Shown here: piece after piece, positions 11,378 through 59,600 of the stretch | Layout: the number at the start of each line of letters is the position of its first letter | Numbering within the stretch: the stretch's first letter is position 1 | Origin: Thiorhodococcus fuscus | GTDB lineage: Bacteria; Pseudomonadota; Gammaproteobacteria; Chromatiales; Chromatiaceae | Assembly (NCBI RefSeq): GCF_042682685.1 | Contig: NZ_JBHUHX010000009.1 | Coordinates: 55,805-119,804 of the forward strand | Reading direction: 5' to 3' | Length of the DNA: 64,000 nt | Made by a program: the position numbers and the translations under genes | The notes under the pieces: model-generated | Databases searched by the model: none | What the model was told of the DNA's origin: nothing | What the model saw: only the letters and a program-made list of their open reading frames with translations

Positions 11378-11380
11378 CCT

Positions 11381-17651: not shown

Positions 17652-17665
17652 AGAGACAGAAACCC

Positions 17666-17860: not shown

Positions 17861-18001
17861 GAATGCCTCAGAGCCTCGCTGTACGTCGATCTCAGGGTCT
17901 CTTGTCCTTTCGGTATGACTCACATCACCGAGAGCGGCGGGAGGCTCAGAGAGCCGCACAGAGGGACTTAGGCAGAGACCCAGCAGAACAGGATAAACAC
18001 A

Positions 18002-18666: not shown

Positions 18667-18827
18667 CACTGCCTGACCCCACAGGCCGCACTGCGCGGAT
18701 CCCCTCCGCGACCTCTGAATACTGTGCGTAATCAGCACAGAAACCCAATCGACACAACCCTTTCTCGTTGAGTCCTTCCGCATTGCCACAGGCACTGGCT
18801 TTCTCTTGAGCCGGTTGTGGGTGCTAT

Positions 18828-20846
18828 GTGGATGGGACTCTGCGGGAGGATTCAACAAGAATGAATCAAGAGACAATGACCCTCTACAAGCAACAACCTC
18901 ACGTCCTCCCTGAAGTCTTCGCCGCCACCATGCGCGAGCACTGGGAGACCTCCCTCGGCAACGTCCCAAGCCCAGCCCTGCAAGCCCTGTGGCGAACCAT
19001 GGCCAAGGCATTCAATGCGTCCATCAATGACGAGGAGCATCGCTGGACTGTGCTCCAACCGCCCACGGGCACCGGCAAGACTCAAGGTGCCTGCCTATTC
19101 TCGGCCATGACAGCCAAGAAGAACGAAGGTCTCTTCATGGACGAGCGTGTCGGAATCCTGATCGTGACCCGGCTCATCAGTCAGGCCAACGAGATCGTGG
19201 AAACCGTCAACCGCATGGCCGGCTTCGAGTGTGCCGCAGCCAAGCATTCCGAGTCCGACCTCACGGCGGAAGAGGCTCAAGCCTTCGATGTTCTGGTGGT
19301 CACTCATGCCGCCTATACCAACGCCCTGGAAGGGCTCTGCAAGGATGACAGGAGCCGCTGGGATGCCCTGGTCCGCTGGGAGCATGGCTACCGGAAGCTG
19401 ACCATCGTGGATGAGGCCATCGCCAACATCGTGGAGGAGTACAACGTCAAGGCGGACGATGTCCGACTGACCCTGGCCTTCATCACCCCGGACATCCGCC
19501 ACCGCTACCCGAATGAGGTCGCTGCCGTGGAGCTGGTCAGGGATCTGCTGGAGCGGATCGCCGAGATGCACAAGGATGCCGAGGGCGACGAGGACGACAC
19601 CACCTCCAGGTTCACCGAGTCCAAGGTGCTCTGGACACCCGAGCGCAAGGCTCAACTCCTCGGCTCTGATGCCTCCATCTCCCTCGACAACCTCCGTGCG
19701 GCCATGAAGGAGGTCCGCTATGACCTGATCGGCAGCAGACGGGAGTCCAAGGACGACCGCAAGCGTCAGGCTGAACGGTTCGACAAGATCCTCCGCAGCA
19801 TCGAGGCGATCATGAACAGGTTCATGTGGTACGCGAAGAAGGGCTTAGAGTACAGCTTCAACGGATCCGAGCTACTGATCCCGGATGACCTCCCGTCCCC
19901 CGTGGTCCTGGATGCGACGGCTCGACAGAACTTCCTCTGGACCCTCCTGGAGGACCGAGCGGTCATCCTTCCCGTGCCACCCAAGACTCGGAACTACCGC
20001 AACGTCACGCTCCATGTGGCTCGGGCGAGAGGGACCGGGAAGACGGCGATGAAGGAGAAGGGCAAGGATCGGATTCCCCGACTCATCCATCAGCTCCAGC
20101 AAGATCTGGATCCAGGCAGGAAGGTCTTCGTCGCTCTGCACAAGGACATCGAGCACCATGCCGTCAAGTACGACCCTGGCTTCTCTGAGTGGTCTGTCGG
20201 TCACTGGGGAGCCATCGACGGTCGGAACGATTGGATGACCTATGACACTGCCGTCATCTTCGGCCTTCCATACCGGGACACTATCTGGGCGACCAACGCC
20301 TTCTTCGCCACCCAAGGTGTCCAGAGCAACGAGTGGCTGAAGAACCCCGAGTGGAAGGGCTACAAGGATGTCCGGGAGGAGATGCAGATCAGACAGGTCT
20401 GTGTGTCCGTGGTCCAGGCCGTCAACCGAGTCCGCTGCCGGAAGGTGACCGATGCGGATGGAAGCTGCGATCAGTCGGATGTCTTCATCATCCTGCCGAC
20501 CGGGAAGATGGGAGAGCAGATGCTGAAGGCTCTGGTGGAGGAGATGCCAGGGATCCAGGTCAAGGGTTGGGACTTCGAGTTGGATGGAGCCAAGCCAAGG
20601 CAACGGATCAAGAAGGGCTCAAGTCATGAGGCGCTCCTGACTCTGATGCAGAACGCGCTGCCTGGAGATTACTCGGTGAGCCACTTGAACACCGAGCTGG
20701 GCCTAGCGCCCAAGGGGCTTGAGAAGATCAAGGCTGCCCTTCGCGATCCAAGCCACCCTCTGACCCGAGCCCTGCTGGAGGTCGGGGTCAAGGTTCAACA
20801 CTCTGGTGCCAAGCGAGGAGCAAGGACGACGCTCATCAAGACGTGA
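18828..20846 (+). CDS. SF2 (DEAD/DEAH-like) helicase-family protein, phage/island-encoded
   Basis: 672 aa (alternative start at 18861, MNQETM). Walker A LQPPTGTGKTQ, DEAH-like box LTIVDEA, a late QAVNRVRCRK resembling helicase motif VI (QxxGRxxR). Confidence 0.55.
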   Translation: MDGTLREDSTRMNQETMTLYKQQPHVLPEVFAATMREHWETSLGNVPSPALQALWRTMAKAFNASINDEEHRWTVLQPPTGTGKTQGACLFSAMTAKKNEGLFMDERVGILIVTRLISQANEIVETVNRMAGFECAAAKHSESDLTAEEAQAFDVLVVTHAAYTNALEGLCKDDRSRWDALVRWEHGYRKLTIVDEAIANIVEEYNVKADDVRLTLAFITPDIRHRYPNEVAAVELVRDLLERIAEMHKDAEGDEDDTTSRFTESKVLWTPERKAQLLGSDASISLDNLRAAMKEVRYDLIGSRRESKDDRKRQAERFDKILRSIEAIMNRFMWYAKKGLEYSFNGSELLIPDDLPSPVVLDATARQNFLWTLLEDRAVILPVPPKTRNYRNVTLHVARARGTGKTAMKEKGKDRIPRLIHQLQQDLDPGRKVFVALHKDIEHHAVKYDPGFSEWSVGHWGAIDGRNDWMTYDTAVIFGLPYRDTIWATNAFFATQGVQSNEWLKNPEWKGYKDVREEMQIRQVCVSVVQAVNRVRCRKVTDADGSCDQSDVFIILPTGKMGEQMLKALVEEMPGIQVKGWDFELDGAKPRQRIKKGSSHEALLTLMQNALPGDYSVSHLNTELGLAPKGLEKIKAALRDPSHPLTRALLEVGVKVQHSGAKRGARTTLIKT

Positions 20847-21556
20847 TCAGTTATCCCCCTGGAGACCCCTAAAGGAATACTTTAGAGATGTTGGGGGGGT
20901 ATTCGCATGGCCAAGGACGGCCAGGATCCACCTGATCCAAGCTTGACAAAGAGACTCCACTCCTTCGTCGCTACGTGCGTCGACCACCATCAGCCATCAC
21001 CCTGGACCACCTTCCTCCGGGCTTCGCCCTGATCGACATAACAGAGGATGGAAGGGAAGATCTTCATGGTCCCCTTCCACCTCAGCCGGCCTCAAGCTGC
21101 CTCAAGCCTCTCGGCTCGGAGTCCGATCAAGCTGCCTTCCTCGCTGATCGAGCCGGATCCCTTGGCTGTCCAGCTTTCTATGTCGATCAGTCGAGAGAAT
21201 CCGACTGAGCCAAGGAAGACCGTGGTCCCCTGATCTAGGGGGGCATGGCGCTGCTCTGGGCTTGTTGTCATCCGCTGCCGAGAGGCTTGAGCCCTCGCTG
21301 CGCCTAATCCTGCTGTCCTGGTGGTGCGAAGGTCGGCGGATCTTCTGGCTGTCTCTCTTCTTGTATCTGTGATTTTTCCAGAGGGACAGCTCTAGTCCCT
21401 CCATACCGCCTCCCTCTGCCTGCCTCTCTACCACCGAAGGTCTTCGTCTCCTTCGCTCTTGCACCCCACCCGCTGCCTGTCGGCCTTCGACAGTGACGCC
21501 CTTCGCCTCCCAGACAGCCGATCTGGTCTCCCTCATCCTCACTGGAGACAGACACC

Positions 21557-21751
21557 ATGAACGACATGACCTCTGCCCTTGGAGACGCCCTCGCCACTTG
21601 GGCGAGCGGTCGGCACATCAGCCGTGAGATCCGCAACAGCCTGCTTGAGTCCGGCTACAGCGCCGACGACATCGCAATGATGGAACTCCATCACTTCAAG
21701 CCCGCACACCTCCACCTTTCGCGTACCTCCCAGACTGGAGAGAACCAATGA
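21557..21751 (+). CDS. Hypothetical small protein
   Basis: 64 aa. 4-bp overlap with the downstream Bro-N gene. Confidence 0.3.
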   Translation: MNDMTSALGDALATWASGRHISREIRNSLLESGYSADDIAMMELHHFKPAHLHLSRTSQTGENQ

Positions 21752-22707
21752 CCGCACTGTCCACCTTCACCTTCCCCGTCACTGCAGCCCAGGTCCGTAC
21801 CGTCACTGACGAGAATGGCGATCCATGGTTCGTCGCCAAGGATGTGGCCGATGCCCTTGGGTATGAGAACACGATGGAAGCGGTGCGCTACCACTGCAAA
21901 CGCGCTAAGGCGTTGAATACATTGAAGCAGAGCAAAATGCTCTCCTTGCATCCGCACACGAAGCTCATCCCCGAGGCCGACATCTACCGTCTGGTGATGC
22001 GCTCCAAGCTCCCGTCCGCCGTTGAGTTCGAGGAATGGGTTGTCGAGGAAGTCCTGCCCTCCATCCGCAAGACTGGCAGCTACTCCATGCAGCCTGCTCT
22101 CCCTGACTTCACCGATCCGGCAGCCGCCGCTGAAGCATGGGCGAAGGAGTACCGGGACAAGATGGTCATGATCGACTTCGCCAAGAAGCAGGCAGCCCAG
22201 CTCACCGAGCAGGCCCCGCTGGTGGACTTCGCCGAGGCTGTCGTCGCCGACAGTGAGGACTGCTACATCCGCGATGCAGCCAAGACGGTCGATGTCGCCC
22301 CCTTCCGGCTCTACGAGATCCTCCGTCAGTACAAGTGGATCCCTGAGTCCGATGTCTACCGGATGGTGATGCGTTCCACCCTCTCGGCTGCCTCTCGATC
22401 ACTGAGCTGGTGGGCTCTCGTCACGACAAGGTCAAGCAAAGCATCGAGCGCCTCGCAAACCGTGGTGTTATCACTCAACCTCCAATGGAGGATGCGTCCT
22501 ACAAAGACGGACCCGGCAGCACCATCGTCACCTAGCTCTTCATCTTCTCCGGTGAGCAAGGCCGGCTGGACTCCTTCTCGGTGGTCGCCCAGCGGTTGCC
22601 CACACCGAGCGTCTCACCTGCATGCTGGATATAGACGAAGTTCAAAGCCACCGGTTTGGTGGGTTTGGACCTCGCGGGTCGATGCCGCCGAAGCACAAAA
22701 CCTATAA
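21748..22707 (+). CDS. Bro-N domain phage antirepressor, apparently frameshifted into a Rha-like segment
   Basis: N-terminal Bro-N signature: GDPWFVAKDVADALGY..EADIYRLVMRSKLP.A.EFE.WV...VLPSIRKTGSY. After ~aa 230 the frame becomes low-complexity, while another frame encodes SELVGSRHDKVKQSIERLANRGVI (Rha-family motif). Confidence 0.55.
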   Translation: MTALSTFTFPVTAAQVRTVTDENGDPWFVAKDVADALGYENTMEAVRYHCKRAKALNTLKQSKMLSLHPHTKLIPEADIYRLVMRSKLPSAVEFEEWVVEEVLPSIRKTGSYSMQPALPDFTDPAAAAEAWAKEYRDKMVMIDFAKKQAAQLTEQAPLVDFAEAVVADSEDCYIRDAAKTVDVAPFRLYEILRQYKWIPESDVYRMVMRSTLSAASRSLSWWALVTTRSSKASSASQTVVLSLNLQWRMRPTKTDPAAPSSPSSSSSPVSKAGWTPSRWSPSGCPHRASHLHAGYRRSSKPPVWWVWTSRVDAAEAQNL

Positions 22708-23640
22708 ATCGTCGGTTTTCGGACCTTGTGGCGTAAATTTAATAAACTAATCATAGGCTTACAATGAATCCCTCGGTGAAAGCGAGGCAGCAAATCACCT
22801 CAATGAGGACGAAGCACAAAACCTGCAAATCGCCGGTTCTGGAAATTGTGATGTGAATTTGATAAGTGAATCAGGGCTTTACGGGGCGATCCTTGGTAGC
22901 CACAAGGCGGAAGCCAACCGGGTTCAAGCGCTGTTCAGCAAGGATTTTCACGGCAACTCTCGCGAATCACGAGGGTCGCGGTTGCGTTCGGATACCAAGC
23001 TGAATCCCCGAGGCTGACATCTACCGTCTGGTGATGAAGTCCCGCTTCCCGTCCGCTACGCGGTTTTAGGAGTGGGGTGTCGATCCGTTCGACCCCCTTG
23101 GCGAGCGGGAAAGGGGCCGCATCCGTTGTGACCCCTGGCGCGTGGATAGGGTGGACGGCAAATTTCCTCCCCCTCTGAAAAGACCAAGCGGATAACCTCG
23201 ATTATGGTTCGCCTGACTGGAAGGGGGTTAATCCGATTAACACCCCTGGGGGAAATCAAGAGGTTACGGTGCTCACCGAGCAGGGTCTCTACTTCTTCGT
23301 CGCCCGCTCCGACAAGCCCTGCGCTCGGCCCTTCCAGAAGTGGAAGGGTACGAAACCGATTCGTACCCCTGGTGGAGCCCAGAAGGTGACCAAATCGTTG
23401 GTTCATGGACCCAAGGGTGGAAGGGGGCGAGCCTCGATTCCTGGCGTTGTATGTTGCACTGGTGCCGAGCCACTCCGATGCCCACAACATGACCACCAGG
23501 CTGGACACGGACGAAGTACAAAACCTGCAAATCCCAGGTTTGCTCACTCGCGGCGTGAATTTGATAAGCGAATCATGGCTTTACGAAGCGATCCTTGGTA
23601 GCCACAAGGCGGAAGCCAAGCGGTTCAAGCGCTGGGTCAA
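22690..23640. repeat. Array of degenerate direct repeats made of Bro-N antirepressor gene fragments
   Basis: Three copies of a 70-125 bp unit beginning gaag(c/t)acaaaacct(g/a)(c/t)aaatc.. at about 22690, 22811 and 23512. Copies 2 and 3 are ~90% identical over ~125 bp. Additional Bro-N-like peptides occur at 22990-23050 (ADIYRLVMKSRFPSA) and 23204-23350 (LTEQGLYFFVARSDKPCARPFQKW). Confidence 0.55.
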
Positions 23641-23995
23641 GCGTGAAGTCCTGCCCACCATCCGCAAGACCGGCAGCTATTCGCTCCAGCCTCAACCCCA
23701 GATCCCACAGTCCTTGCCCGAGGCACTCCGTCTCGCCGCCACGCTGGCCGAAGAGAAAGAGCGCCTCGCCCAGGAGAACGCGCAGCTCACCCACATCACG
23801 TCCGTCCAGAACGACATGCTTGAAGCCACTGCCCCCAAGGCTGCCCTTCTCGATCAAGCGTTCGAGGATGACCGCTGGGTTAACGTGACCGACTTCGCCA
23901 GCCGGCTGGAAGGCGTCAACCGCAACAGCCTGACTTCAGTGATCCGGGTTATAGGAGGCGCGGTTGCAGTTAGCTATCAAGCCACTCGTTTGTAA
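23405..23995 (+). pseudogene. Bro-N C-terminal half fused to a KilA-C-like tail (antirepressor remnant)
   Basis: ESWLYEAILGSHKAEAKRFKRWVKREVLPTIRKTGSYSLQ is the distal half of a Bro-N domain without its N-terminal half. Preceded by repeat debris. Confidence 0.45.
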
Positions 23996-25037
23996 CTTCA
24001 CGGTACTTGCCGATGAAGTCCTCACGACCACAAAGCCGAGGTTCTGTCAGCAAATGGTAGGCTCTATTTATGGCCTGCCCGATCTCTTCCCGAGTCAACT
24101 CTGCACAGAACACCGAGAAGAAATCAGATAGATCGACAACAGCAAGATCGAAGCTCAGGTGCTCGATGAAATCTATTAGTTTGGACGCGGGATATAGATC
24201 GCTATCACCCCGGACATCGGAAGCGAATATTACGTATTTTGGCAGATTGCCCCGAACCGCTTTCTTTTGAAAATCACTAAGTCGGTTCTTCCAATCATCC
24301 CTTACCGTTACCTCGAATGCCGCTATTAGCAAGTCCTCTCTGTATTCCTCAATATCTCCAGTTGCCCCATCGAATTTGTCAGATGCATGCGGGTGATGTG
24401 TAATAACTCGATGCCCATATCGCTTTCGATGGACTTCAATGAAGGCGGCAACCAAGAACTGCTGGATGTGACCCTCTGAGGGTACTTTCATCAGCCTTTC
24501 GCAGAGACGAAGACTTCTCGCATACGACAAATAACCCCTTGGTAAAACTGGCAGTGCTTGCGGAATCACCTTGGATTGTTCAAGTCTCCATACAATGTGA
24601 TTGACAAGCGCTTCCCTTTCTGCTGGCTGCAGGCATTCAAGGTTGCTCACGAATGATGCAAAGCGTATATCAGCCGAGAGATCAAACTGGCGCACCGCTC
24701 CCTTCCAGCCTAAATTTTCACCAAATGCCGTTATGCTGTTGTGAAGTGTGACATGCCGTTGAGTCAGCTCCCCTGCGAGTCTCTTATCACCATACTTACC
24801 TCGCGCCCCTACTGGGACGGTCTTAAAATCCCACTCTTCATCAATCAACGAATATGCTGCCAGGAAAGCACAAGCAAGTCTCACGCTTCCGCGCTGCGAT
24901 TCTATATGGCTATCAAATATCGCTTTGACATTTCTAGGCGCAGGCTCTCCAAGAACCTCTCCTTCTGATAGGCGATCAAGCCTATCAAGAATAATATCTA
25001 CAGCCTTCTCTACACTTTCATTTCGTCTTCGTTTCAT
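23970..25037 (-). CDS. Putative Type II restriction endonuclease (partner of the adjacent C5-MTase)
   Basis: 355 aa, markedly low-GC ORF. 4-bp overlap with the methyltransferase gene. No motif assignable by eye. Confidence 0.5.
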   Translation of the reverse strand: MKRRRNESVEKAVDIILDRLDRLSEGEVLGEPAPRNVKAIFDSHIESQRGSVRLACAFLAAYSLIDEEWDFKTVPVGARGKYGDKRLAGELTQRHVTLHNSITAFGENLGWKGAVRQFDLSADIRFASFVSNLECLQPAEREALVNHIVWRLEQSKVIPQALPVLPRGYLSYARSLRLCERLMKVPSEGHIQQFLVAAFIEVHRKRYGHRVITHHPHASDKFDGATGDIEEYREDLLIAAFEVTVRDDWKNRLSDFQKKAVRGNLPKYVIFASDVRGDSDLYPASKLIDFIEHLSFDLAVVDLSDFFSVFCAELTREEIGQAINRAYHLLTEPRLCGREDFIGKYREVTNEWLDS

Positions 25038-26083
25038 AGCGCCAATTCCATTTGATTGAAATCCTCATTTGCAGGCACAAGACCCGAAGGAGATTGAACT
25101 CCATTGGCCTGAGAATACAAAGCCGCGCCTATGGCAAATGCCAGATCAGGTGGAACTGCGTCTCCCACTTGCTTGTACTGAGACGAGCGTTTGCCAGAGA
25201 AAGCCATCTCGCTAGGAAAGGTCTGGATTATGGCGCACTCTTCCACGCTAAGGCGACGAGCACCAGGCACTATACCTTGCCACGGCTCTCCACCAGCGCG
25301 GAGATGAGAGTGGTACTTCGGGGCAATATTTTCCGTATCTATCCAGTGAGTCTTGTATCCGCCCGATGATGCCAGGATTGTGTGGCAGGGTCCGTTGGGA
25401 TCGATAGGGCGTCCACCTCCATTATAGACATGCCCAGCGTATGGACTCGGGCGTAAGTCTGGATACTTAGCGAAACGCACAGGGCAGTTCGGTGCTTCAC
25501 CGATAGGATCCGGGCCAAGCCTACTAGCCGCACTTACGTGCGGTAGCGATGTGTTTTCGCCATGGGTTGGCGTAGGTAGAAGTAAGCGATGTGAGCGGGA
25601 GCCGAGTATAAATAGTCGCCTTCTCTTCTGCGGCACGCCATAATCCGCAGAGTTAATTACAGACCAGTTAATGTGATATCCACATGCAGCCAGCCTTGAA
25701 AGGACTGACTCAAAATACGGGCGAGCCTTCTTGAGTGTAAGACCAGGAACATTTTCCATGAGGAAATACGCTGGCCGAACTTCGTTGAGACATCGGATGA
25801 ACTCTGGAATCATATCCCTTTCGTCCGCATGCCCTTTGCGCAACCCACCGATTGAAAAAGGTTGGCACGGAGGTCCGCCAACGACAATGTCAACTCGGCC
25901 TCGAAATGGCGAGAAGTCAATCTTGCGAACATCTTCGTTGAAGTGGTTTGAGCTGCCATGGTGCAAGGCGTATGTATCCATAGCATCTCGGTTGATCTCG
26001 ACATTTGCCACAATATCGAAACCAGCCCTCTGGATGCCTAAAGAAAGACCGCCTGGCCCTGAGAATAGGTCGATGCCTTTCAC
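25034..26083 (-). CDS. DNA (cytosine-5)-methyltransferase
   Basis: 349 aa. Motif I DLFSGPGG, motif IV GGPPCQPFS, motif VI ENV, motif VIII QKRRRLF. Confidence 0.9.
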   Translation of the reverse strand: MKGIDLFSGPGGLSLGIQRAGFDIVANVEINRDAMDTYALHHGSSNHFNEDVRKIDFSPFRGRVDIVVGGPPCQPFSIGGLRKGHADERDMIPEFIRCLNEVRPAYFLMENVPGLTLKKARPYFESVLSRLAACGYHINWSVINSADYGVPQKRRRLFILGSRSHRLLLPTPTHGENTSLPHVSAASRLGPDPIGEAPNCPVRFAKYPDLRPSPYAGHVYNGGGRPIDPNGPCHTILASSGGYKTHWIDTENIAPKYHSHLRAGGEPWQGIVPGARRLSVEECAIIQTFPSEMAFSGKRSSQYKQVGDAVPPDLAFAIGAALYSQANGVQSPSGLVPANEDFNQMELAL

Positions 26084-26496
26084 TGATATTGGTATCGCTT
26101 CTGGTCGGATAAGCCCCTGCTCTTGCTATCGGATGTGGGAGATCTTTCCGACAACGAGGCAGACAGGGCTAGTAGGGAACTTGCAGCAAAGAGGCTAGGC
26201 AAACCTAGCTTGCTTGACGTAGAGTAAAAGCCGTCCGCCGAGGTGCTGACAACACCCCGACGACAAAGCAAGGCCGCCACTAACGGCTTGCACCGGCTCG
26301 GACATGATACAGCCCCAGGGGTTGGTCTGTCCGCTCAAGGCCCAACTACGCTGATTCCTAGCCAAGTTGCGCCTGGAGTTCCCGTTCCTTCCTCCTGGGA
26401 GAGCCTCTGCCCCTGACGCTGCTGCCTCACCGACAGCGTCGGACTGCCTGTGTGAGCGGTCGATTTCTCAAATCCAACTCTTGGAGAGATCGACCC

Positions 26497-26793
26497 ATGA
26501 AATCCCATGAACAGCTCCTCGCCCCTGGCTCCACCGAGAAGACCGTCGCCACTGCCGACCTGAACATCCGCAGCACGATCAGTCTGGATGTTTACGCCGG
26601 AACCAGATCCTGGATGTGGAAGGTCTACCTCAACAAGGAGGAGCTGACGAGCCAGAGCGGCTACTCCACCCACGCCTTGGCCAGCCAGGCCGGATTGGCG
26701 GAATGGGACCGGATCGTCTCGGCGGTCACCGGCTCGAACATCAAGGCCATCGAAGCCAATGTCGCTGCCGCTGAGAAGGAGCCGTCCGCATGA
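26497..26793 (+). CDS. Hypothetical protein upstream of the replication ATPase
   Basis: 98 aa. ATG at 26497. Its stop overlaps the downstream start (ATGA). Confidence 0.35.
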   Translation: MKSHEQLLAPGSTEKTVATADLNIRSTISLDVYAGTRSWMWKVYLNKEELTSQSGYSTHALASQAGLAEWDRIVSAVTGSNIKAIEANVAAAEKEPSA

Positions 26794-28406
26794 ACCCAAG
26801 CCCCCTCCTTGCTGAGGGGGTGTCCAACACCTCCAGGCACACTTCCGTATCCAACGCTGTTGGAGCCTCAGCATCTAGCGCTGTTGAAGCCTCTGCGCCC
26901 AGCACAGCCGAAGCCCCCGACACTCCGCTGCCGGACTTCACCCCAGTCGCCACCATCCGCCGACCCGATGGTCAAGAGACCCAAGTCGTCCGTGACCGCT
27001 GGGGCAGCCATCTGCTGCACTCTCCCGACAACCCCGGATGGGTCCGGGTCCATCGAGACGGAGCGGGCAACTGGATCGAGCGCGAGACCGGGATCGTCCA
27101 TGCCACCGATGGCAGCGTGATCCACCCCAAAGACATCTTCGGCGCATCATCCGAGGGATTCATCGACGTGAACACCAAGGCAGCCTCGACCATCAAGCCC
27201 GACCCCGTGCGTTGGCTTTGGCCCGGATGGCTCGCGGCCGGGAAGGTCCACCTCCTGGCTGGAGCACCAGGCACAGGGAAGACCACCGTCAGCATGGCTC
27301 TGGCGGCGACGGTCTCGCTTGGAGGCAGATGGCCCGATGGAACCGAAGCCCTCCAAGGTGATGTCCTGATCTGGTCCGGGGAGGACGACATCAAGGACAC
27401 CCTGGTCCCGAGGCTCATGGCTGTGGGGGCTGATCTCAATCGCGTCCACTTCATCACGACCACCAACACCGAGGATGGCCTGAGAGCCTTCGATCCAGCC
27501 GTCGACATCGACCTCCTGGCCGACAAGATGGCCTGGATGGATCCTTGCCCTTCCTTGCTGATCGTCGATCCCATCGTGGCAGCGGTCTCTGGAGACAGTC
27601 ACCGCAACGCCGAGGTCCGGCGAGCCTTGCAGCCCTTGGTTGACCTGGCCGCTTCCCGTCACTGCGCTGTTCTGGGGATCTCCCACTTCAGCAAGGGCAG
27701 CTCGGGACGAGATCCGATTGACCGGGTGACCGGATCGCTGGCCTTCGGTGCCCTGGCGCGGGTGGTCATGGCAACCGCTCGGCTGCCGGACGACCACCCC
27801 AGTGGAGTGAGGCGGATCCTGGCCCGAGCCAAGAGCAACATCGGCGAGGATGGTCAGGGGTTCGGATACGACCTGGAGCTGGAGGAACCGGTCGAGGGAA
27901 TCGAGGCGACCCGAGTCCTCTGGGGCGAGATGCTCGAAGGCAGCGCCAGGGAACTCCTGAGCATGGCCGAGCCGGTCCCTGATGGCGAGGGTGAGAGCAA
28001 CGCCGATGTCGAGTCCTTCGTTCGCGGGCTCCTGGCCGATGGTCCAGTCTCCGCCAAGCAGATGAAGGCCGATGCCGATGGAGCCGGCTACTCCTGGGAT
28101 CGGGTGAAGCGAGCCGCCAGCCGGATCGGAGTGGAGCGGAGGAAGGAGGACTTCAGCAAGGGCTGGGTATGGTCGCTCTCCACGGACCATGACGGTCGAT
28201 CAAGAACGGTCGCTCTGGAGGAGCTGATCCGGGATGCCCTGGCACAGGGAGAACGCACGGCCCAGGAGATGAAGGTCATGATCGAGGAAGCCGGCTATTC
28301 CTGGGATCAAGGCAAGCGAACCGCCGCCAAGCTGGGCATCGAGCGCCAAAAGTCCGGTTACCAGGGACCGTGGACCTGGACGCTGGGAGAGGCTGCCGCC
28401 GCCTAG
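26790..28406 (+). CDS. RepA-like AAA_25/RecA-fold replication ATPase of integrative elements, with two tandem ~57-aa C-terminal repeats
   Basis: 538 aa. WLAAGKVHLLAGAPGTGKTTVSMALAATVSLGGRWPDG (Walker A in AAA_25 context), LLIVDPI (Walker B). The C-terminus has a duplicated module ..GAGYSWDRVKRAASRIGVERRK.. / ..EAGYSWDQGKRTAAKLGIERQK.. Confidence 0.75.
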   Translation: MNPSPLLAEGVSNTSRHTSVSNAVGASASSAVEASAPSTAEAPDTPLPDFTPVATIRRPDGQETQVVRDRWGSHLLHSPDNPGWVRVHRDGAGNWIERETGIVHATDGSVIHPKDIFGASSEGFIDVNTKAASTIKPDPVRWLWPGWLAAGKVHLLAGAPGTGKTTVSMALAATVSLGGRWPDGTEALQGDVLIWSGEDDIKDTLVPRLMAVGADLNRVHFITTTNTEDGLRAFDPAVDIDLLADKMAWMDPCPSLLIVDPIVAAVSGDSHRNAEVRRALQPLVDLAASRHCAVLGISHFSKGSSGRDPIDRVTGSLAFGALARVVMATARLPDDHPSGVRRILARAKSNIGEDGQGFGYDLELEEPVEGIEATRVLWGEMLEGSARELLSMAEPVPDGEGESNADVESFVRGLLADGPVSAKQMKADADGAGYSWDRVKRAASRIGVERRKEDFSKGWVWSLSTDHDGRSRTVALEELIRDALAQGERTAQEMKVMIEEAGYSWDQGKRTAAKLGIERQKSGYQGPWTWTLGEAAAA

Positions 28407-28419
28407 CGGTTAGCCGCCA

Positions 28420-28610
28420 AAGGGAGCGGAAGGGGGCGAAGAAGTGGACTCAAGTCTACGTGCTCCCTTCCGCGCTCTTTGCTCCCTTCTGCACTCTTTG
28501 GCTGCATTCTTCCGCATTCTTTGGCGCGACCACGGCTCAAAGGGAGCAGAAGAGTGCAAGGGAGCAGAAGGGAGCACTGGAATTTGAGTGCATCCTTCGC
28601 CTTCTTCGGT
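28420..28610. repeat. Iteron-like direct repeats inside a long imperfect palindrome (candidate origin/regulatory region downstream of repA)
   Basis: Direct repeats gcactctttgg / gcattctttgg / gcattcttcc, flanked by inverted arms gtgctcccttc..tgctcccttctgcact and agtgcaagggagcagaagggagcac. Confidence 0.35.
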
Positions 28611-29040
28611 GCTCCCTTCGCGTCGATTCATGCGCAGCCGAGGGACTGAGGCGCGTCCGCCGACTGTCCGCGCCGGTGAGAGTGAAGACCTTGGATGTTT
28701 TGCCATAAAAATCTGAAGTGGCACATCTAGAGCGCGGCTTCTGAATTCCCCCCCGTCCCGCCCCTGCATTCCGCCATTCGCCTTCTTTCGTCCCGCCTCT
28801 GGGGTATGCCCCAGTCTCCACCGCAAGCCAGCCGCCAAGCAGACAACCAAGCCTCTCCGGTCCACCGCTCCGGCCATCCACCGAGCCCTCCAAGCCTTGC
28901 CCTACCGGTGAAGCCCCGAGGCTCTGGCACCTTAGCGCTTCCGTCTTCGATGGAGCCTGATACATCGGCACTCTGTCGCCGCTCTTTCCGTTGCCGCAGC
29001 ACCAGCTCATCCGACTGCCAAGGGACGTGATGTGTCCCTT

Positions 29041-32609: not shown

Positions 32610-33137
32610 CTTCCCGCTCTCCTCTGTGCCGTCGCTGTCGGCGGCATGACCAGCCGTTTCGGCCTGCCCGCCGCCCCGATCAAGAATCCGGCATTGCTGT
32701 ATGTCCCGTTGTCGTTGGTCGGTTGGTGGAGCCGGAGTCGGGTCGCCAACGTTCGGCCCGATCCCGGCGTTCTATCGATTCGGTGTCCGGCTCGGACCGG
32801 ACATCGTTCGGAGCCGGCCGCTCGAAACCGCCGGCTGAAAGAAGGAAAGGCTCGCCCCGCGTCGCGCCGATGGGCCAGGACAGCTGCATGGCCGGAATCG
32901 TTCAGCTCGATCGATCCGCATCCCTGCGGCACCGCCCGCCATCCGGCGAGATCGCCCGAAACCGCACGATGTCTATCCATGCGTCGTATCCTGGCTCGAG
33001 ATCGCCACGACGCCCCCGATCCGGCCTCCCTGCCGGCCCGCCATTCGGCGCGCATATCCATCTGATCGGGCCGGGGCTCACCCTGTGGTCTTGATTGGAC
33101 AGGTCATCCAATCGAGTGCGACGGTCAGTCGCCAAAG

Positions 33138-33210
33138 AGACAGCGGCGGGATTCGAACCCGCGCCGGACTGGTTATCGGCCAGTTGCTCTACCCACTGAG
33201 CTACGTTGTC
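33138..33210 (-). tRNA. tRNA-like element, Ile(GAU)-like anticodon, noncanonical (C at position 33, A-C mismatch at 5:68). Possible pseudo-tRNA or tRNA-mimic ncRNA.
   Basis: Folds into a 73-nt cloverleaf: acceptor GACAACG/CGCUGUC, D-arm GCUC-AGUGGGUA-GAGC, anticodon arm ACUGG-CCGAUAA-CCAGU, T-arm GCGGG-UUCGAAU-CCCGC with GGTTCGAATCC. No CCA encoded. Confidence 0.5.
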
Positions 33211-41525: not shown

Positions 41526-41541
41526 TGCAAACGGGGTGCCA
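41526..41541 (-). promoter_or_regulatory. Sigma-54 (-24/-12) promoter of the rnf operon
   Basis: The minus strand reads TGGCAC-cccgt-TTGCA (perfect GG/GC spacing), ~45 bp upstream of the rnfA start. Confidence 0.6.
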
Positions 41542-45118: not shown

Positions 45119-45227
45119 CCGCCCTGGGGTCGTGGGCGGCCAGACCGACCCACGGCCCGAATCGAATCCGCCCCGAACCGAGACAGGAAGTCAGAACGCC
45201 GGGGCCGCATTGACCGAGGTCTCGATC

Positions 45228-45887
45228 ATGACAGGGCTCGCGATCCTCATCGGCTCGATTGTGCTGTTTCTGCTCTCGAAGGTCTGGTCGAACCGACGAC
45301 GGAAGAAACGGGCGGACTTCATTCGCTCCCACCCCTTCCCGAACGGCCTGCTCGACCGGCTCGCGGCCAGACACCCGTCACTCTCGACGCACGATCGGCA
45401 CCTGGTCTCGCGCGCGCTGCGCCAGTTTTTTCTCGTCTATCTGGCCAGCGGACGCCGATTCGTCTCCATGCCGTCGCGGGTCGCGGACGATCTCTGGCAC
45501 GAGTTCATCCTCTATACCCGCCACTACGACGCCTTCTGCCGACGCGCCTTCGGACGTTTCCTGCACCACACCCCAGCCGTGGTCATGGGATCGGATCGAA
45601 TCGGTAACGCCGGTCTGCGGCGCGCCTGGTGGTTCGCCTGCCGCGAGGAACGCCTGGATCCGAAAAAACCGGCCCGGCTGCCGCTCCTCTTCGCGCTGGA
45701 CGCGCAGCTCGGGATCGAGGACGGGTTCCGCTACGCGCTCGATTGCCACCCGCAGCGGGGAAGCGACACGGACGAGCCGATCCATTGCATCGCCGATCTG
45801 GCCAGCGGCGACTCAAGCGACGGATGCGGCGGCTCCTGGTTCGGATGCGATGGCGGAGGCGATGGCGGAGGATGCGGCGGGGATTGA
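45228..45887 (+). CDS. Hypothetical membrane-anchored protein with Gly/Asp/Cys-rich C-terminal tail
   Basis: N-terminal TM helix (LAILIGSIVLFLL), conserved-looking DLWHEFILYTRHYDAFC..FGRFLHHTP block, C-terminal ..DGCGGSWFGCDGGGDGGGCGGD. Confidence 0.4.
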   Translation: MTGLAILIGSIVLFLLSKVWSNRRRKKRADFIRSHPFPNGLLDRLAARHPSLSTHDRHLVSRALRQFFLVYLASGRRFVSMPSRVADDLWHEFILYTRHYDAFCRRAFGRFLHHTPAVVMGSDRIGNAGLRRAWWFACREERLDPKKPARLPLLFALDAQLGIEDGFRYALDCHPQRGSDTDEPIHCIADLASGDSSDGCGGSWFGCDGGGDGGGCGGD

Positions 45888-47496: not shown

Positions 47497-47780
47497 GTGG
47501 CTCTTCGTCTCGGCTTCAAACATGCCATCGAGCATCGCCTGACCAAACCCAGAACCCCGCAGACCAATGGCATGGTCGAACGCTTCAATGGGCGCATCGC
47601 CAAGGTACTGGCCAACACGCTTCGACTCGTCGCAGAGTTTGGAGCAAACCATCACCCGCTACGTCCAGGTATACAACCAGCATATTCCGCAAAAAGCACT
47701 CAGGCACATGGCCCCGATTCAAGCCGTCAAGGATTGGGCTGAGAAACGCCCCGAACTATTCAAAAAGCAGGTATATAATT
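47497..47780 (+). pseudogene. IS481-family transposase, 3'-terminal remnant (5'-truncated, internal frameshift)
   Basis: ..TKPRTPQTNGMVERFNGRIAKVLANT then, after a -1/+1 shift, ..RFDSSQSLEQTITRYVQVYNQHIPQKALRHMAPIQAVKDWAEKRPELFKK is the rve-domain C-terminus typical of IS481-family transposases. It abuts the trkH stop. Confidence 0.6.
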
Positions 47781-47797
47781 TTCGGGGATTTTACACC

Positions 47798-47849
47798 GGC
47801 TTCATACTGCGTCCTTCGCTCTCGCTCAGGCCGCAGTATGAAGCCGGCT
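47798..47849. repeat. Perfect 15-bp inverted repeat hairpin between the IS remnant and the TIR gene
   Basis: ccggcttcatactgcg-N20-cgcagtatgaagccgg. Confidence 0.5.
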
Positions 47850-47880
47850 GTGCAAAGCTTTGGATGCTTGGAGAGAAGTA

Positions 47881-48702
47881 ATGGTCGATAAAAACGAGAA
47901 GTCGCTTGAAGAGCAGATAGTCGAGCGTTACCGAGCAGTTGTGGCCCAGCACTACCCCGAGCAGTTATCTGCGTGGCCCGTGCTGTCCGGCTATGACTCA
48001 AAAATCGGGAGTTACCAGGGTTGGCTCGTTGTCATCCTCAATCACACTGGCAATCCTGTGATGAGATCGTTCAGCGGGATCGGCGATCTTCCGCAGAATC
48101 TTTTGGGAGTCGCGCAGCTTGATGTAGCAAGCAAAGAGAAAGCTCGCTCAAGGCTTAACCGTCATTTCAATCTTCGCCCAACAGACGCAATAGTATTCAT
48201 AGATCCCGCTGGAAGCATCAATGACGAGCTTGGTCACATGCTCAAGAAGCACGAATTCGCCATGGGCCTAACACCGATGAAGATATTCCTCAGCCATAAA
48301 GGTGCCGACAAACCGCTAATTAGGGAATACAAGAAGACTTTGGAAATCATTGGATTTGATCCGTGGCTGGACGAAGATGCAATGCACGCAGGATTGGAGT
48401 TAGAGAGAGAACTCTTGAAGGGCTTCGCAGACTCATGCGCAGCCGTCTTCTTTGTAACCACCAACTACAAGGATGAAAACTTTCTAGCCTCTGAAGTTGA
48501 CTATGCAATTCAAGAGAAGCGCAAAAAGGGAGATAAGTTTTCCATCATTACTCTGGTCTTTCACGAACCAAGCGAGAAGGCGAAGGTGCCAGACCTCCTG
48601 ACACGCTATGTCTGGAAAGAACCATCTGGGCAGCTTGAAGGGCTTCGGGAAATTTTAAAGGCACTTCCCGTACAAACTGGTCAAGTCTATTGGCGTCCGT
48701 GA
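47881..48702 (+). CDS. TIR-domain protein with ~135-aa N-terminal domain of unknown function
   Basis: 273 aa on a low-GC patch. The C-terminal ~135 aa (MKIFLSHKGADKPLIREYKKTLEIIGFDPWLDEDAMHAGLELERELLKGFADSCAAVFFVTTNYKDENFLASEVDYAI) fits the bacterial TIR fold pattern (hFlSH...D, W.D, conserved Glu). Good RBS (ggagagaag) before ATG 47881. Confidence 0.65.
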   Translation: MVDKNEKSLEEQIVERYRAVVAQHYPEQLSAWPVLSGYDSKIGSYQGWLVVILNHTGNPVMRSFSGIGDLPQNLLGVAQLDVASKEKARSRLNRHFNLRPTDAIVFIDPAGSINDELGHMLKKHEFAMGLTPMKIFLSHKGADKPLIREYKKTLEIIGFDPWLDEDAMHAGLELERELLKGFADSCAAVFFVTTNYKDENFLASEVDYAIQEKRKKGDKFSIITLVFHEPSEKAKVPDLLTRYVWKEPSGQLEGLREILKALPVQTGQVYWRP

Positions 48703-51964: not shown

Positions 51965-51980
51965 AGGCATGACAATTGCT
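51965..51980 (+). promoter_or_regulatory. Sigma-54 (-24/-12) promoter of nifB
   Basis: aGGCATgacaaTTGCT with canonical GG-N10-GC spacing, ~65 bp upstream of the nifB ATG. Confidence 0.6.
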
Positions 51981-56661: not shown

Positions 56662-57243
56662 ATGTCGACCCTGGCCTACGACCTGACGCGGGAAGCCGAT
56701 CGCGTCTTCGCCCGATTGATGGTGCGTGCGGCCGGGGACGGCAATGATCGAGCCTTCGCGGCGATGATCGCAACGCGCGCCGCCGGTGGCGGTGCGCTCC
56801 CCGCCTGGCTGGGGCTGGATCTGGGCGATTTTCGCAATCTCATGGCCCATCATTTCCCGGGCGTCTCGCCCGACGTGCTCAGCGCCATCGACTCGGGCCA
56901 ACCTCTGACCGACGCGCGCCAGGACGAGCGCGATGAACTGATCGAACTCATGCTGACGCATCGCGCCAACCGCACCCTCTCCGAGGTCTGGATGGCCAGC
57001 GTCGTCGCCGCCGGCTGCATGGCCAGCGACCATCTGTGGCAGGATCTCGGGCTCTGGGAACGTCCCGAGCTGACCGCCCTGATGAACAGAAACTTCCCGA
57101 CCCTGGCCGAGCGCAACACCAAGGACATGAAGTGGAAGCGCTTCCTCTACAAGCAGTTGTGCGAGGCCGAGGGCATCTATGTCTGCCGCTCCCCGTCCTG
57201 CGAGGTCTGCGTCGACTACCATGTTTGTTTCGAATCCGACTGA
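56662..57243 (+). CDS. nifQ: NifQ (molybdenum donor for FeMo-co synthesis)
   Basis: C-terminal CRSPSCEVCVDYHVC (Cx4Cx2Cx5C) and overall NifQ-like sequence. Immediately follows the ferredoxin gene. Confidence 0.75.
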   Translation: MSTLAYDLTREADRVFARLMVRAAGDGNDRAFAAMIATRAAGGGALPAWLGLDLGDFRNLMAHHFPGVSPDVLSAIDSGQPLTDARQDERDELIELMLTHRANRTLSEVWMASVVAAGCMASDHLWQDLGLWERPELTALMNRNFPTLAERNTKDMKWKRFLYKQLCEAEGIYVCRSPSCEVCVDYHVCFESD

Positions 57244-58216
57244 CTCTTCGCCCATCCAAGGCCAAAGCGACCGGCTACAGCAACGCGCCATCGGCGCCTA
57301 TCTGGGCATGGCCGTCGGCGACGCCCTGGGCGCGACCGTCGAATTCCTCACCCCGCGCGAGATCCGGGATCAGTACGGCGAGCACCGCGACATCATCGGC
57401 GGCGGCTGGCTGCGTCTGCGCAAGGGACGGGTAACGGACGACACCGAGATGAACCTGGCGCTGGGCCGAAGCCTGCTCGCCGCAGGCGGCCTGGATGCCG
57501 TCGCCATCGCCGAGTCCTTCAGCGACTGGATGCGCACCAAACCGGTCGACATCGGACACACGGTCCGGCGCGGCATCAGTCTCTATCGGCGCACCGGACA
57601 GACCCAAGTCCCGGAGAACGAGTACGACGCCGGCAATGGCGCCTGCATGCGCGCCCTGCCGATCGCGCTCTACACCCTGGGCGCGACGCCCGACGAGGTC
57701 GACACGGCCAACCGCCTCCAGGCCCACATCACCCATCACAACGCCTTGTCCGATCTCGGTACGTTCGCCGTGATCCGCATGGTCCAGACCGCCCTGCTGG
57801 GCGGAACCGTCATCGATCTGGCGACGCTCGCCAAACAACTCGTCGACGCCGACGCCCATTTCCGCTACGACCGCAAACGCACCGAGAATCCCGGCGGCTA
57901 TATCGTCGAAACCCTTCAAGCCGTCATCCAGTCGCTGTTGCAGACCGACTCATTCGAATCGGCGCTGGTGGATGTGGTCAATCGAGGAGGCGACGCAGAC
58001 ACCACGGGGGCGATCCTGGGCATGATCGCGGGCGCGCTCTACGGTCCCGAGGCAATCCCCAAGCGCTGGATGAACACGCTGGACAAGGAGACGGCCAAGG
58101 CCTGCCGAGCGCAGGCTCTGGCCCTGGTGCGGGCATCCCCGCACCAGGGCGGGAATCTGAGGCTGAGCCTCAAGCCTGGCGAGCGGACGAGCACTCAGCA
58201 AGCCGCCCCTTCCTGA
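57221..58216 (+). CDS. draG: ADP-ribosyl-[dinitrogen reductase] glycohydrolase DraG
   Basis: AIGAYLGMAVGDALGATVEFLTPREIRDQYG..GGGWLRLRKGRVTDDTEMNLALGRSL..GGDADTTGAILG closely matches the DraG/ADP-ribosylglycohydrolase family. Overlaps the nifQ 3' end in another frame. Confidence 0.8.
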   Translation: MFVSNPTDSSPIQGQSDRLQQRAIGAYLGMAVGDALGATVEFLTPREIRDQYGEHRDIIGGGWLRLRKGRVTDDTEMNLALGRSLLAAGGLDAVAIAESFSDWMRTKPVDIGHTVRRGISLYRRTGQTQVPENEYDAGNGACMRALPIALYTLGATPDEVDTANRLQAHITHHNALSDLGTFAVIRMVQTALLGGTVIDLATLAKQLVDADAHFRYDRKRTENPGGYIVETLQAVIQSLLQTDSFESALVDVVNRGGDADTTGAILGMIAGALYGPEAIPKRWMNTLDKETAKACRAQALALVRASPHQGGNLRLSLKPGERTSTQQAAPS

Positions 58217-58607
58217 GCGCATCACGCCACAGATGGGCCGCCAGGGCGCTGTCCATCGTAAGTGCGTGCTGGGCGAACCAGTCCGGCATCTGCTCGATCA
58301 CATAGGCACGCGCCATGGCGACCTGCCCGCGCCGCACCTGCCGTGCGAACCGCTCCAGGTCGCCGAGGACGCGTTGATGATCGGCGCGATGCTCGGCGAT
58401 CGGGCCGAAGGCCGTCTCGCGCATCATCGCCTCCTCCGCTGCGAAGTGGGCGTGGGTGTGAAGCACCATCTCACCGAAGAGATCGGCGAAGCTCGCGTTC
58501 GACGCACCGTCCATGCGGTTGAGAAGATCGACGAACTCACGGTGGTTCCGGTCCATGGCGGGCATGCCCAACAGAAAGCGTGCCTCGAAATCCTCGATCA
58601 GGGCCAT
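58170..58607 (-). CDS. Hemerythrin-like (HHE cation-binding) domain protein
   Basis: 145 aa. H..F..L, HTHAHFAAEE, AEHRADHQR His/Glu ligand spacing of bacteriohemerythrins. The 3' end overlaps draG by ~47 bp, so the true stop may be earlier. Confidence 0.55.
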   Translation of the reverse strand: MALIEDFEARFLLGMPAMDRNHREFVDLLNRMDGASNASFADLFGEMVLHTHAHFAAEEAMMRETAFGPIAEHRADHQRVLGDLERFARQVRRGQVAMARAYVIEQMPDWFAQHALTMDSALAAHLWRDALRKGRLAECSSARQA

Positions 58608-58712
58608 GAATCCTCCTTGGCCAAATCGACGAGCCTGGGTATCGGTCCGAGGTCCGAATCGGCCCGCCGATGATTCGTCCCTCCGCTATGTCATCCGGTC
58701 ACCGGACACGGA

Positions 58713-59600
58713 TCAGCAGCCGCTCTCATGCGCGACAGGAATCAGCTCGCCCATCGGGTCCAGCGTTCCGGCCGCCGCCAGGAAATCCGGGATATCGGCC
58801 TCGATGATCTCCACATCCTTGGTCGCACAGAAACGGCGTTCCTTGTCGGTAGGATTGGGAATCAAGGCCCAGCCCGCCGGTGAGCCGGCCGCATAGATCA
58901 TATCCGACATCACCATCCGCTCGGTGTCGCGGTTGAGGCTCAGCCCGAGGAAGAGATAGCGCTTACCCGGCCGATAGGCCTTGATGAAGGATGGAATGGC
59001 AAAGCCGCCCATCAGTTCGGTGATGTAATCCACATAGTCGGCGTCGGACGCGATGTAAGTGGAGTCCGGGCGCGGACTGCCCATCGGCTTGAACAGGATC
59101 GGCAGACTCGGGTCAACCGCTTCCTGCGCCACCTCGCGGTAAACCGTCCCGTCGTAGGCATGGATTCGGAACCGATAGTCCGTGCCGCCGGTTCGGGCGA
59201 TCCCCCTAACCAGGGTGTGCGGCACGTCGGAATAGGAATCCTGCAGCTGCAGGTCGCGGTTGATGTCGATCAGATAGCGAGGGCGAATCGACCGCAACCA
59301 ATCGTGCAGGGGCGCACGCGTCCAGGAACGCGTCGCATAGGTCGCTTCGAGAAAACGGTGGACGGCACCACGCCCACGCTTGAGTTCGACATCCATGGCC
59401 GCGCGCGAGAACTCCCACATGAGACGGGGGGACATGGGTCGACCGTTGTTCATGGCCAGAATCAGACTGTCGCTATCGGCCGGAATGGGCTCGCCCGTGG
59501 ACGTATCCACGGAGCCGGTCAGAGCGCCGGCCCCCAGATAGGGAACCAGTTCGCCGCGAGCCACCTCGTTCGCGAGAGATTCAAGTCGTGCAGACACCAT
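58713..59600 (-). CDS. SIR2-like (SIR2_2 family) domain protein, solitary
   Basis: 295 aa. LVPYLGAGALTGS (GAGxS NAD-binding loop), YLIDINRDLQLQ (TTNYD-like), FRIHAYDG (His), YLFLGLSLNRDTE (lFlGySl.D). Confidence 0.5.
   Translation of the reverse strand: MVSARLESLANEVARGELVPYLGAGALTGSVDTSTGEPIPADSDSLILAMNNGRPMSPRLMWEFSRAAMDVELKRGRGAVHRFLEATYATRSWTRAPLHDWLRSIRPRYLIDINRDLQLQDSYSDVPHTLVRGIARTGGTDYRFRIHAYDGTVYREVAQEAVDPSLPILFKPMGSPRPDSTYIASDADYVDYITELMGGFAIPSFIKAYRPGKRYLFLGLSLNRDTERMVMSDMIYAAGSPAGWALIPNPTDKERRFCATKDVEIIEADIPDFLAAAGTLDPMGELIPVAHESGC

Follow-up and report, generated by a model that had tools for sequence, protein, structure and literature searches.

Results

Organization of the locus

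The SIR2-like gene considered here is located at positions 58713–59600 (minus strand) of a 64,000-nt stretch of the Thiorhodococcus fuscus genome (contig NZ_JBHUHX010000009.1, positions 55,805 to 119,804 of the forward strand; the whole stretch is called the window), and it encodes a protein of 295 amino acid residues (32.7 kDa) with a SIR2_2 fold, very probably a nitrogen fixation (nif) accessory protein of the PnfA/azo0536 type. It is followed on the same strand by the gene for a bacteriohemerythrin-like protein of 145 amino acid residues (58170–58607), which matched PF01814 and TIGR02481. Both genes lie tail-to-tail with draG (57179–58216, plus strand), a 345-codon open reading frame (ORF) with its probable start at 57221, which encodes the ADP-ribosyl-[dinitrogenase reductase] hydrolase (PF03747; TIGR02662, 402 bits against a cut-off of 337). 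An earlier note, made from the DNA letters, had placed a SIR2_2 gene and a hemerythrin gene convergent to draG, and this arrangement was confirmed by the ORF list, Pfam and NCBIfam. At their 3' ends, draG and the hemerythrin gene have 47 nt in common (58170–58216), and a comparable convergent overlap was observed in three of the seven related loci in which both genes abut. draG is genomic context and lies outside the transcription unit of the SIR2-like/hemerythrin pair.

The SIR2 fold lacks the catalytic histidine

Pfam assigned the SIR2-like protein to one family only, PF13289 (SIR2_2; 33.2 bits against a cut-off of 24.5, E = 6.7e-8), and the match covered residues 155–266 only; membership of PF02146 was not detected by Pfam, and no NCBIfam model matched. 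The AlphaFold2 model (predicted local distance difference test score, 92.8) had a SIR2-type Rossmann fold. The protein was aligned with close and distant relatives, and when the alignment profile was searched against the PDB, it aligned end to end with SIR2 domains of defense proteins such as KomC. Met173 (in the motif FKPMGS) aligned with H146 of KomC and with the histidine of the KLHGS motif of canonical SIR2_2 relatives, as well as with the corresponding residues of ThsA and DSR2. The region that the earlier note had described as the catalytic-histidine region is therefore present, but the residue itself is a methionine.

Residue conservation was scored in 202 orthologs with at least 59% identity. 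The site of the catalytic histidine was occupied by methionine in 166 orthologs, leucine in 33, threonine in two and histidine in one; that is, the residue known as H146 in KomC and H171 in DSR2 is not conserved. The glycine loop reads G23-A/P-G25-A-L27 in the family, and Leu27 is invariant where GAGxS has its serine, so the GAGxS loop claimed for the window protein is in fact GAGAL. In wider relatives this loop degenerates further, for example to LGLEIF or LGINVF. The C-pocket, which corresponds to the TTNYD or TQNID segment, reads D-I-N114-R-D116, and N114, R115 and D116 are invariant. The TTNYD-like segment of the earlier note has thus kept its asparagine and aspartate, but its actual reading is DINRD; in more distant nif-linked relatives, the asparagine is lost. 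About 40 further positions are invariant in the orthologs, including R77, D188, T194, E195, G219, R224, D225 and R228. The SIR2-like protein is thus under strong purifying selection, but for something other than sirtuin-type catalysis. The window protein also differs from the classical sirtuins (CobB, Sir2Tm and SIRT1–7) and from SirTM, since it has no zinc-ribbon module, catalytic histidine or GAGxS serine.

The hemerythrin retains its di-iron ligands

The product of the downstream gene matched PF01814 with 48.4 bits (Pfam). All di-iron ligands of the H-HxxxE-HxxxH-HxxxxD set (H22, H54, E58, H73, H77, H114 and D119) are present, and they are invariant in 34 homologs. The nearest solved structures in the PDB search were the bacteriohemerythrin of M. 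capsulatus (4XPW) and the hemerythrin domain of DcrH (DcrH-Hr). Judging from these ligands, the site that reacts with oxygen or nitric oxide (NO) is likely to be functional.

Distribution and neighborhood of the SIR2-like gene

The homolog search returned 4,642 relatives of the SIR2-like protein; the best 120 were all 68–94% identical to it and came from purple sulfur bacteria, the closest named relative being the protein of Imhoffiella purpurea (85% identity). No exact-sequence match was obtained for the window protein or its Imhoffiella homolog. The family is compact, with only 310 clusters of 50%-identity representatives in an exhaustive profile-free search. In a scan of one genome per species, relatives were encoded in at least 573 species, and the SIR2-like protein is 59–94% identical across alpha-, beta- and gammaproteobacteria. 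The protein was called solitary in the earlier note, which does not hold in evolutionary terms.

The neighborhoods of the best 80 loci were compared by tblastn with the window proteins, and their ORFs were clustered, with Pfam annotation of the cluster representatives; neighborhood counts refer to 79 loci and promoter counts to 76. The taxa spanned were Chromatiaceae, Sedimenticolaceae, Thiodiazotropha, Thiothrix, Thiohalomonadaceae, Marinobacterium, Oceanobacter, Gallionellales, Rhodocyclales, Methylocystaceae and Cohaesibacter. In 60 of the 79 loci, from all three proteobacterial classes, nif or dra genes were found within 10 kb of the SIR2-like gene. Of the 79 loci, 33 had a co-oriented draT gene (PF07357, 329 bits) upstream, which in 16 was less than 500 bp away; a co-oriented hemerythrin gene lay downstream in 31 and was directly adjacent in 28; the draG–nifQ–…–nifB block was convergent downstream in 26; and nifH was present in 32. 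The links to nif genes and to hemerythrin that had been noticed in the window thus recur in other genomes.

In the modal layout (for example L045, L049 and L042), nifK, nifD and nifH point away from draT, the SIR2-like gene and the hemerythrin gene, which are read in this order towards a convergent series of draG, nifQ, two fdx genes, the flavodiiron protein gene, arsC, a third fdx gene, nifB, nifA and nifL. In a variant without draT (L054, L055, L057, L065 and L073), the SIR2-like gene is directly divergent from nifH, and the SIR2-like/hemerythrin pair is retained with neither draT nor draG within 10 kb. The window itself carries nifQ before draG (Pfam) and, further upstream on the plus strand, genes for two 2Fe-2S ferredoxins, a flavodiiron protein, an ArsC-like protein and a 4Fe-4S ferredoxin, and nifB; nifL-nifA lie beyond this block, followed by an rnf operon. 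nifH, nifD and nifK were not found in the 64-kb window. The opposite flank of the SIR2-like gene is formed by deaD, on the same strand, and a gene for an ABC1/UbiB-type kinase. An upstream deaD was found only in seven Chromatiaceae loci and the window; the idea that deaD rather than nif was the conserved neighbor, which came from a deaD–SIR2–AMP-ligase arrangement without nif genes in Thiocystis violascens, was overturned by the 80-locus survey. Apparent Rosetta-stone fusions (P0183, P0126, P0237, P0137 and P0180) were discarded as frameshifted or chimeric metagenome calls.

In Imhoffiella purpurea (L003), the place of the hemerythrin gene is taken by an ORF (11043–12173) whose product is a multi-pass membrane protein, by eye acyltransferase-like, so even among the Chromatiaceae the hemerythrin partner can be missing. 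An ORF of about 185 codons with no Pfam match, which carries the motifs LLFNxNF, PLVxGxPWNEVLDE and DFKGxSAA, was observed between the SIR2-like gene and the hemerythrin gene in Rhodocyclales and some Sedimenticolaceae (L060, 7384–7941; L024, 10952–11512; L072, L077 and L066), and an ORF of about 550 codons recurs near the SIR2-like gene in L009, L010, L053, L055, L062, L066, L072 and L077.

A conserved NifA/sigma-54-type promoter

The spacer between deaD and the SIR2-like gene is 255 nt long and holds two elements on the minus strand. A putative sigma-54 (−24/−12) promoter, TGGCAGATTTCTTGCT (59655–59640), with one mismatch to TGGCAC-N5-TTGCW, lies 55 nt upstream of the ATG of the SIR2-like gene. 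A putative NifA upstream activator sequence, TGTCGTCTTTGCGACA (59809–59794), which was read from the sequence and by a motif script and is a perfect match to TGT-N10-ACA, is positioned 209 nt before the start codon, 47 nt beyond the deaD stop. Among the 76 loci, a −24/−12 match at 45–65 nt upstream of the start was found in 51, against 0.26 expected from the background rate, and TGT-N10-ACA at 100–300 nt upstream was likewise found in 51, against about 4 expected; both motifs occurred together in 34. Both are kept when draT lies immediately upstream, and also at loci that have moved away from the nif genes (L001, L006 and L011), for instance in T. violascens and Thiocapsa. At the level of motifs, the SIR2-like gene appears to have its own conserved promoter of the NifA/sigma-54 type, as in pnfA.

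The stop codon of the SIR2-like gene is separated from the hemerythrin start by 105 nt, and the hemerythrin gene has a strong Shine-Dalgarno sequence (AAGGAGG). Since neither a terminator nor a sigma-54 motif was found in this spacer, the two genes are probably co-transcribed. Two apparent terminators inside the SIR2-like ORF were discounted, as such structures occur at chance frequency. Elsewhere in the window, a perfect sigma-54 consensus, TGGCACCCCGTTTGCA, was observed upstream of the rnf operon (41526–41541, minus strand), and a weaker match, AGGCATGACAATTGCT, some 65 nt ahead of the probable nifB start (51965–51980, plus strand); as candidate promoters, these would be consistent with a single NifA regulon across the window.

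Relationship to PnfA and azo0536–dcrH1

A gene of this kind has been described in Pseudomonas stutzeri A1501, in which PST1325 was named pnfA (Yan et al. 2010, BMC Genomics 11:11; PMC2820453). According to that paper, pnfA is NifA/RpoN-dependent, encodes a 31.7 kDa product, is divergent from nifH and is found in diazotrophs only; homologs were reported in A. vinelandii (72%), Azoarcus BH72 (55%), Dechloromonas (54%) and Halorhodospira (49%), with a first subfamily of 49–92% identity and a second of about 20%. A non-polar pnfA mutant kept 23% of its nitrogenase activity at 0.5% oxygen and behaved like the wild type under anaerobiosis; it did not fix nitrogen while respiring nitrate, and nifH transcription was unchanged (PMC2820453). 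The authors proposed electron transfer or oxygen protection and compared PnfA to UspA and ETF-alpha; the SIR2 fold and the missing histidine were not recognized (PMC2820453). PST_1325 is currently annotated as a "SIR2 family protein" (PMC11332353). No later work on pnfA was found in full-text literature searches.

The second published relative is in Azoarcus olearius BH72. In the part of PMC8467165 that deals with this region (citing Oetjen & Reinhold-Hurek 2009), nifH (azo0538) is set beside draT, azo0536 and the hemerythrin-like gene dcrH1, in this order, with draG1 and nifQ farther on. The same account gives 60-fold induction of azo0536 and 64-fold induction of dcrH1 under nitrogen fixation, with draT not induced; a draT–azo0536–dcrH1 polycistronic mRNA is proposed there, and a "potential secondary promoter" downstream of draT is postulated for azo0536–dcrH1. 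In Z. mobilis and R. capsulatus, too, SIR2-family proteins of nif clusters show induction or depend on NifA, and in Thalassolituus diazotrophs a SIR2_2 protein adjoins nifH in 23 of 25.

The window protein resembles PnfA in being a single-domain protein of about 32 kDa (32.7 against 31.7 kDa) that is confined to diazotrophs and has a nif-linked gene (60 of the 79 best loci), in the SIR2 family annotation and in the −24/−12 promoter with TGT-N10-ACA; pnfA is divergent from nifH like its orthologs in the five draT-less loci named above. The Dechloromonas and Azoarcus homologs of the pnfA paper fit the taxa of the family described here (group A), and the two PnfA subfamilies of about 20% identity mirror group A and a second clade, group C (about 25%). 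The differences are that the window gene is flanked by deaD and draG, at the opposite edge of the nif region, and does not adjoin nifH, and that it is followed by a hemerythrin gene, which the pnfA paper does not mention. The window shares with azo0536–dcrH1 the order of a conserved hypothetical and a hemerythrin-like gene and the proximity of draG1–nifQ, and the separate promoter suspected in Azoarcus matches the conserved sigma-54 motif of this family; deaD, rather than draT, lies upstream in the window. Orthology of the window protein with PnfA/azo0536 is considered very probable on the basis of position, size, annotation, promoter type and shared taxa.

A second SIR2_2 clade inside nif clusters

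Group C proteins (4,499 matches), which include the products of the rhizobial "sir2" genes, share about 25% identity with the window protein and are similar to it in length. Their genes always follow nifT, and in beta- and gammaproteobacteria they are accompanied by genes for a DUF6129 protein and a DegT aminotransferase: the order nifB–fdxN–…–nifZ–nifT–DUF6129–DegT–SIR2 was found in Azoarcus KH32C, Methylolobus and Sulfuriferula, and nifA–nifB–fdx–nifZ–nifT–SIR2 on R. etli p42d (RHE_RS30545). The group C genes lie at 8001–8849 in L083, at 8001–8852 in L084 and L085, and at 6941–7879 in L086 (R. etli p42d). In tblastn, plasmid matches comprised p42d, the one plasmid inspected, and 71 others, nearly all rhizobial. 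No group C gene was found within 10 kb of a group A gene. The histidine is not conserved in group C either (consensus YKPxGS), and the asparagine is replaced (DxWYD). Group C thus resembles the window protein in its position inside nif clusters and in the NifA-dependent presence of the R. capsulatus member, probably Rcc03262; it differs in its gene neighborhood and in having neither a hemerythrin nor a draT partner. The second subfamily defined in the pnfA paper corresponds to group C.

Absence of draT from the window

The earlier note had remarked that draT is missing from the window, and this was borne out: tblastn with four DraT proteins gave no DraT-like sequence there (best E = 0.3). The SIR2-like protein showed no similarity to DraT (PF07357) either, as Pfam gave SIR2_2 alone. 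In 27 of the 33 draT-bearing loci, draT lies less than 400 bp from a divergent nifH. Because draT is normally located beside nifH and the window holds no nifHDK, its absence here is expected and uninformative. The best 120 matches of a homolog search with the Sedimenticola DraT came only from Sedimenticolaceae and Thiodiazotropha, and a literature search found nothing on DraT in Chromatiaceae relatives.

Other features of the window

A TIR_2 protein (PF13676, E = 2.9e-13; weak PADLOC matches to SAVED_TIR and PDC-S66) is encoded at 47860–48702 (plus strand) by a gene with low third-position G+C content. It is directly preceded by an integrase-core fragment (47567–47881), and the two are inserted between trkH and a yibE/F gene in the nif region; the pair looks like a small mobile or defense insertion unrelated to the SIR2-like gene. 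A Thoeris-like link between this TIR protein and the SIR2-like protein was rejected: the base composition differs, the TIR gene sits beside the integrase fragment, and the two genes are unlinked in related loci. A low-G+C island at about 13280–29000 (0.50–0.59 against 0.62–0.66 elsewhere) starts with a serine recombinase ORF (13282–14832) and carries a Type II restriction enzyme gene (23970–25037; PADLOC REase_II, 330 bits) that overlaps a C5 cytosine methyltransferase gene (25034–26083), as well as phage-like antirepressor and primase-like ORFs; RtcB and tRNA-Ile (33137–33210, minus strand) are encoded just past it. Directly downstream of nifA, an ORF of 251 codons (45132–45887, plus strand) encodes a protein with a Gly/Cys-rich C-terminus ending in GDSSDGCGGSWFGCDGGGDGGGCGGD and no Pfam or PADLOC match.

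Discussion

The SIR2-like gene and the hemerythrin gene of T. fuscus are probably a conserved, NifA-controlled nif accessory pair of the PnfA/azo0536–DcrH1 type, in which a sirtuin fold, itself probably non-catalytic, and a hemerythrin sustain nitrogenase. The fold, the loss of the histidine, the synteny and the conserved promoter motifs were established in the present analysis. NifA/RpoN dependence, the induction of about 60-fold and the oxygen- and nitrate-dependent loss of activity come from the literature on presumed orthologs and would apply to the window pair by analogy. The SIR2-like gene would be transcribed, probably together with the hemerythrin gene, from its own NifA-activated sigma-54 promoter, and with such a promoter the pair would be made only when nitrogenase is made. 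The SIR2-like protein most likely acts as a module that binds a ligand or a partner without sirtuin-type catalysis; the best guess for the ligand is NAD+, ADP-ribose or a different nucleotide, bound in what is left of the Rossmann pocket. The di-iron hemerythrin would sense or scavenge oxygen or NO, and the pair, as a positive accessory factor, would keep nitrogenase (probably its Fe protein) active under oxidants. Ligand binding and the protective role are what we infer from these data; the oxygen- and nitrate-dependent phenotype of the pnfA mutant fits such oxidant protection.

Several points weigh against this interpretation. The nitrogenase-activity phenotype is known from P. stutzeri only, and the orthology with PnfA/azo0536 is deduced from position, size, annotation, promoter type and taxa, not from a sequence alignment. 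Ligand binding is a guess, as the glycine loop has no serine, and the retained Asn114 and Asp116 may leave room for an unconventional NAD-dependent activity. Roughly half of the loci have no hemerythrin gene beside the SIR2-like gene, Imhoffiella (L003) and T. violascens (L001) among them. Since draT is so often adjacent, the SIR2-like gene could be linked more closely to the ADP-ribosylation switch than to protection from oxidants.

This last point leads to an unlikely alternative, in which the protein is a third component of the DraT/DraG switch: the histidine-less SIR2 fold would sense or buffer NAD+, ADP-ribose or nicotinamide, the hemerythrin would report oxygen or redox state, and together they would tune the ribosylation and de-ribosylation of the Fe protein. 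The upstream draT genes on the same strand (33 of 79, with 16 of them adjacent), the convergent draG (26 loci), the polycistronic draT–azo0536–dcrH1 mRNA proposed in the Azoarcus account and the retained Asn114 and Asp116 of the C-pocket all speak for it. However, the pair also occurs beside nifH with neither draT nor draG within 10 kb in the five draT-less loci; it has its own NifA/sigma-54 promoter, with about 60-fold induction in Azoarcus while, in the same account, draT was not induced; and the pnfA mutant loses activity, not switch-off. P. stutzeri A1501 is not known to carry draTG. More doubtful still is that the protein is an active NAD+-dependent enzyme with non-canonical catalytic residues, that is, a lysine deacylase or an ADP-ribosyltransferase acting on nitrogenase proteins and possibly replacing DraT. 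The SIR2 fold, the invariant Asn114 and Asp116, the RefSeq name of relatives ("SIR2 family NAD-dependent protein deacylase"), the acetylation of Nif proteins in Z. mobilis (PMC8600466) and the missing draT of the window can be cited in its favor, and the Zymomonas and Thalassolituus papers assume a lysine deacylase for nif-linked SIR2 proteins. Yet the general-base histidine is missing in 201 of the 202 orthologs, and the broader family has M, L, A, Y, I or F at this site and W, C or T at the asparagine site; the histidine mutants of DSR2 and KomC were deposited as H171A and H146N forms; the serine of GAGxS is an invariant leucine; and the gene accompanies draT rather than replacing it, draT being expected beside nifH and thus outside the window. 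The absence of these active-site residues also weakens the deacetylase role assumed in published work. As a replacement for DraT in particular, the SIR2-like protein is unsupported, since the gene co-occurs with draT, persists where draT and draG are lacking, and encodes a protein that lacks the catalytic base. Of the redox- or oxygen-linked protein modifier envisaged in the earlier note, the connection to nif therefore stands (nif or dra genes in 60 and hemerythrin in 28–31 of 79 loci, published nif-type induction and an oxygen-dependent phenotype), whereas the role of a stand-in for DraT does not (draT upstream in 33 of 79 loci, no histidine).

The earlier note's other proposal, an antiphage NADase unrelated to nif, would make the protein a SIR2 enzyme of the Thoeris, DSR or Kongming type that lies beside the nif genes by chance, possibly with the TIR_2 protein 10 kb away as its partner. 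The closest solved structures are indeed defense SIR2 domains (KomC, ThsA, DSR2 and AVAST5), and a TIR_2 gene is present. Identity of the window protein to the defense SIR2_2 NADases (KomC, ThsA, DSR2, AVAST5/Avs5 and SIR2-HerA) is 11–16%, however, and these have the catalytic histidine and the GAGxS serine where the window family has methionine or leucine and leucine, respectively. PADLOC returned no family for the SIR2-like protein, which is a single-domain protein with no sensor or effector, and none of the partners that such systems have (TIR ThsB, SLOG, HerA, KomA/B or STAND) was found; its neighbors are deaD, hemerythrin and draG. The family, encoded in at least 573 species, shows vertical conservation in nif clusters (59–94% identity) and not a patchy distribution, and its genes, with NifA/sigma-54 promoter motifs upstream, belong to nif clusters under apparent NifA control and not to defense islands. 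The phage-defense explanation thus fails on every point that could be tested; its probability is close to nil and it is effectively refuted.

A bolder and improbable idea is that the SIR2-like/hemerythrin pair would form a two-protein, oxidant-sensing pseudo-enzyme module, in which the hemerythrin reports oxygen or NO and the SIR2 remnant binds NAD+, ADP-ribose or the ADP-ribosylated Arg101 of the Fe protein, and thereby shields the Fe protein or gates DraT/DraG. Were this true, the module would be the missing third component linking oxygen or energy status to nitrogenase switch-off, for which the signal path to DraT/DraG has stayed unresolved.

Genes of this type had been met before in nif clusters with their mechanism unexplained, and the window protein is their Chromatiaceae member; the recognition of the histidine-less SIR2 fold, the conserved promoter and the systematic partnership with hemerythrin and draT are new here. 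The PnfA/azo0536-type genes occur in at least 573 species, and a sister clade is found on symbiosis plasmids of rhizobia; few nif-cluster genes with no biochemical function assigned are as widespread, and the literature labels those of the PnfA/azo0536 type "conserved hypothetical" or presumed lysine deacetylases. The Pfam name alone is an insufficient basis for calling such genes defense systems or deacetylases. Their function bears on the oxygen tolerance of nitrogenase and on the transfer of nif clusters into new hosts.

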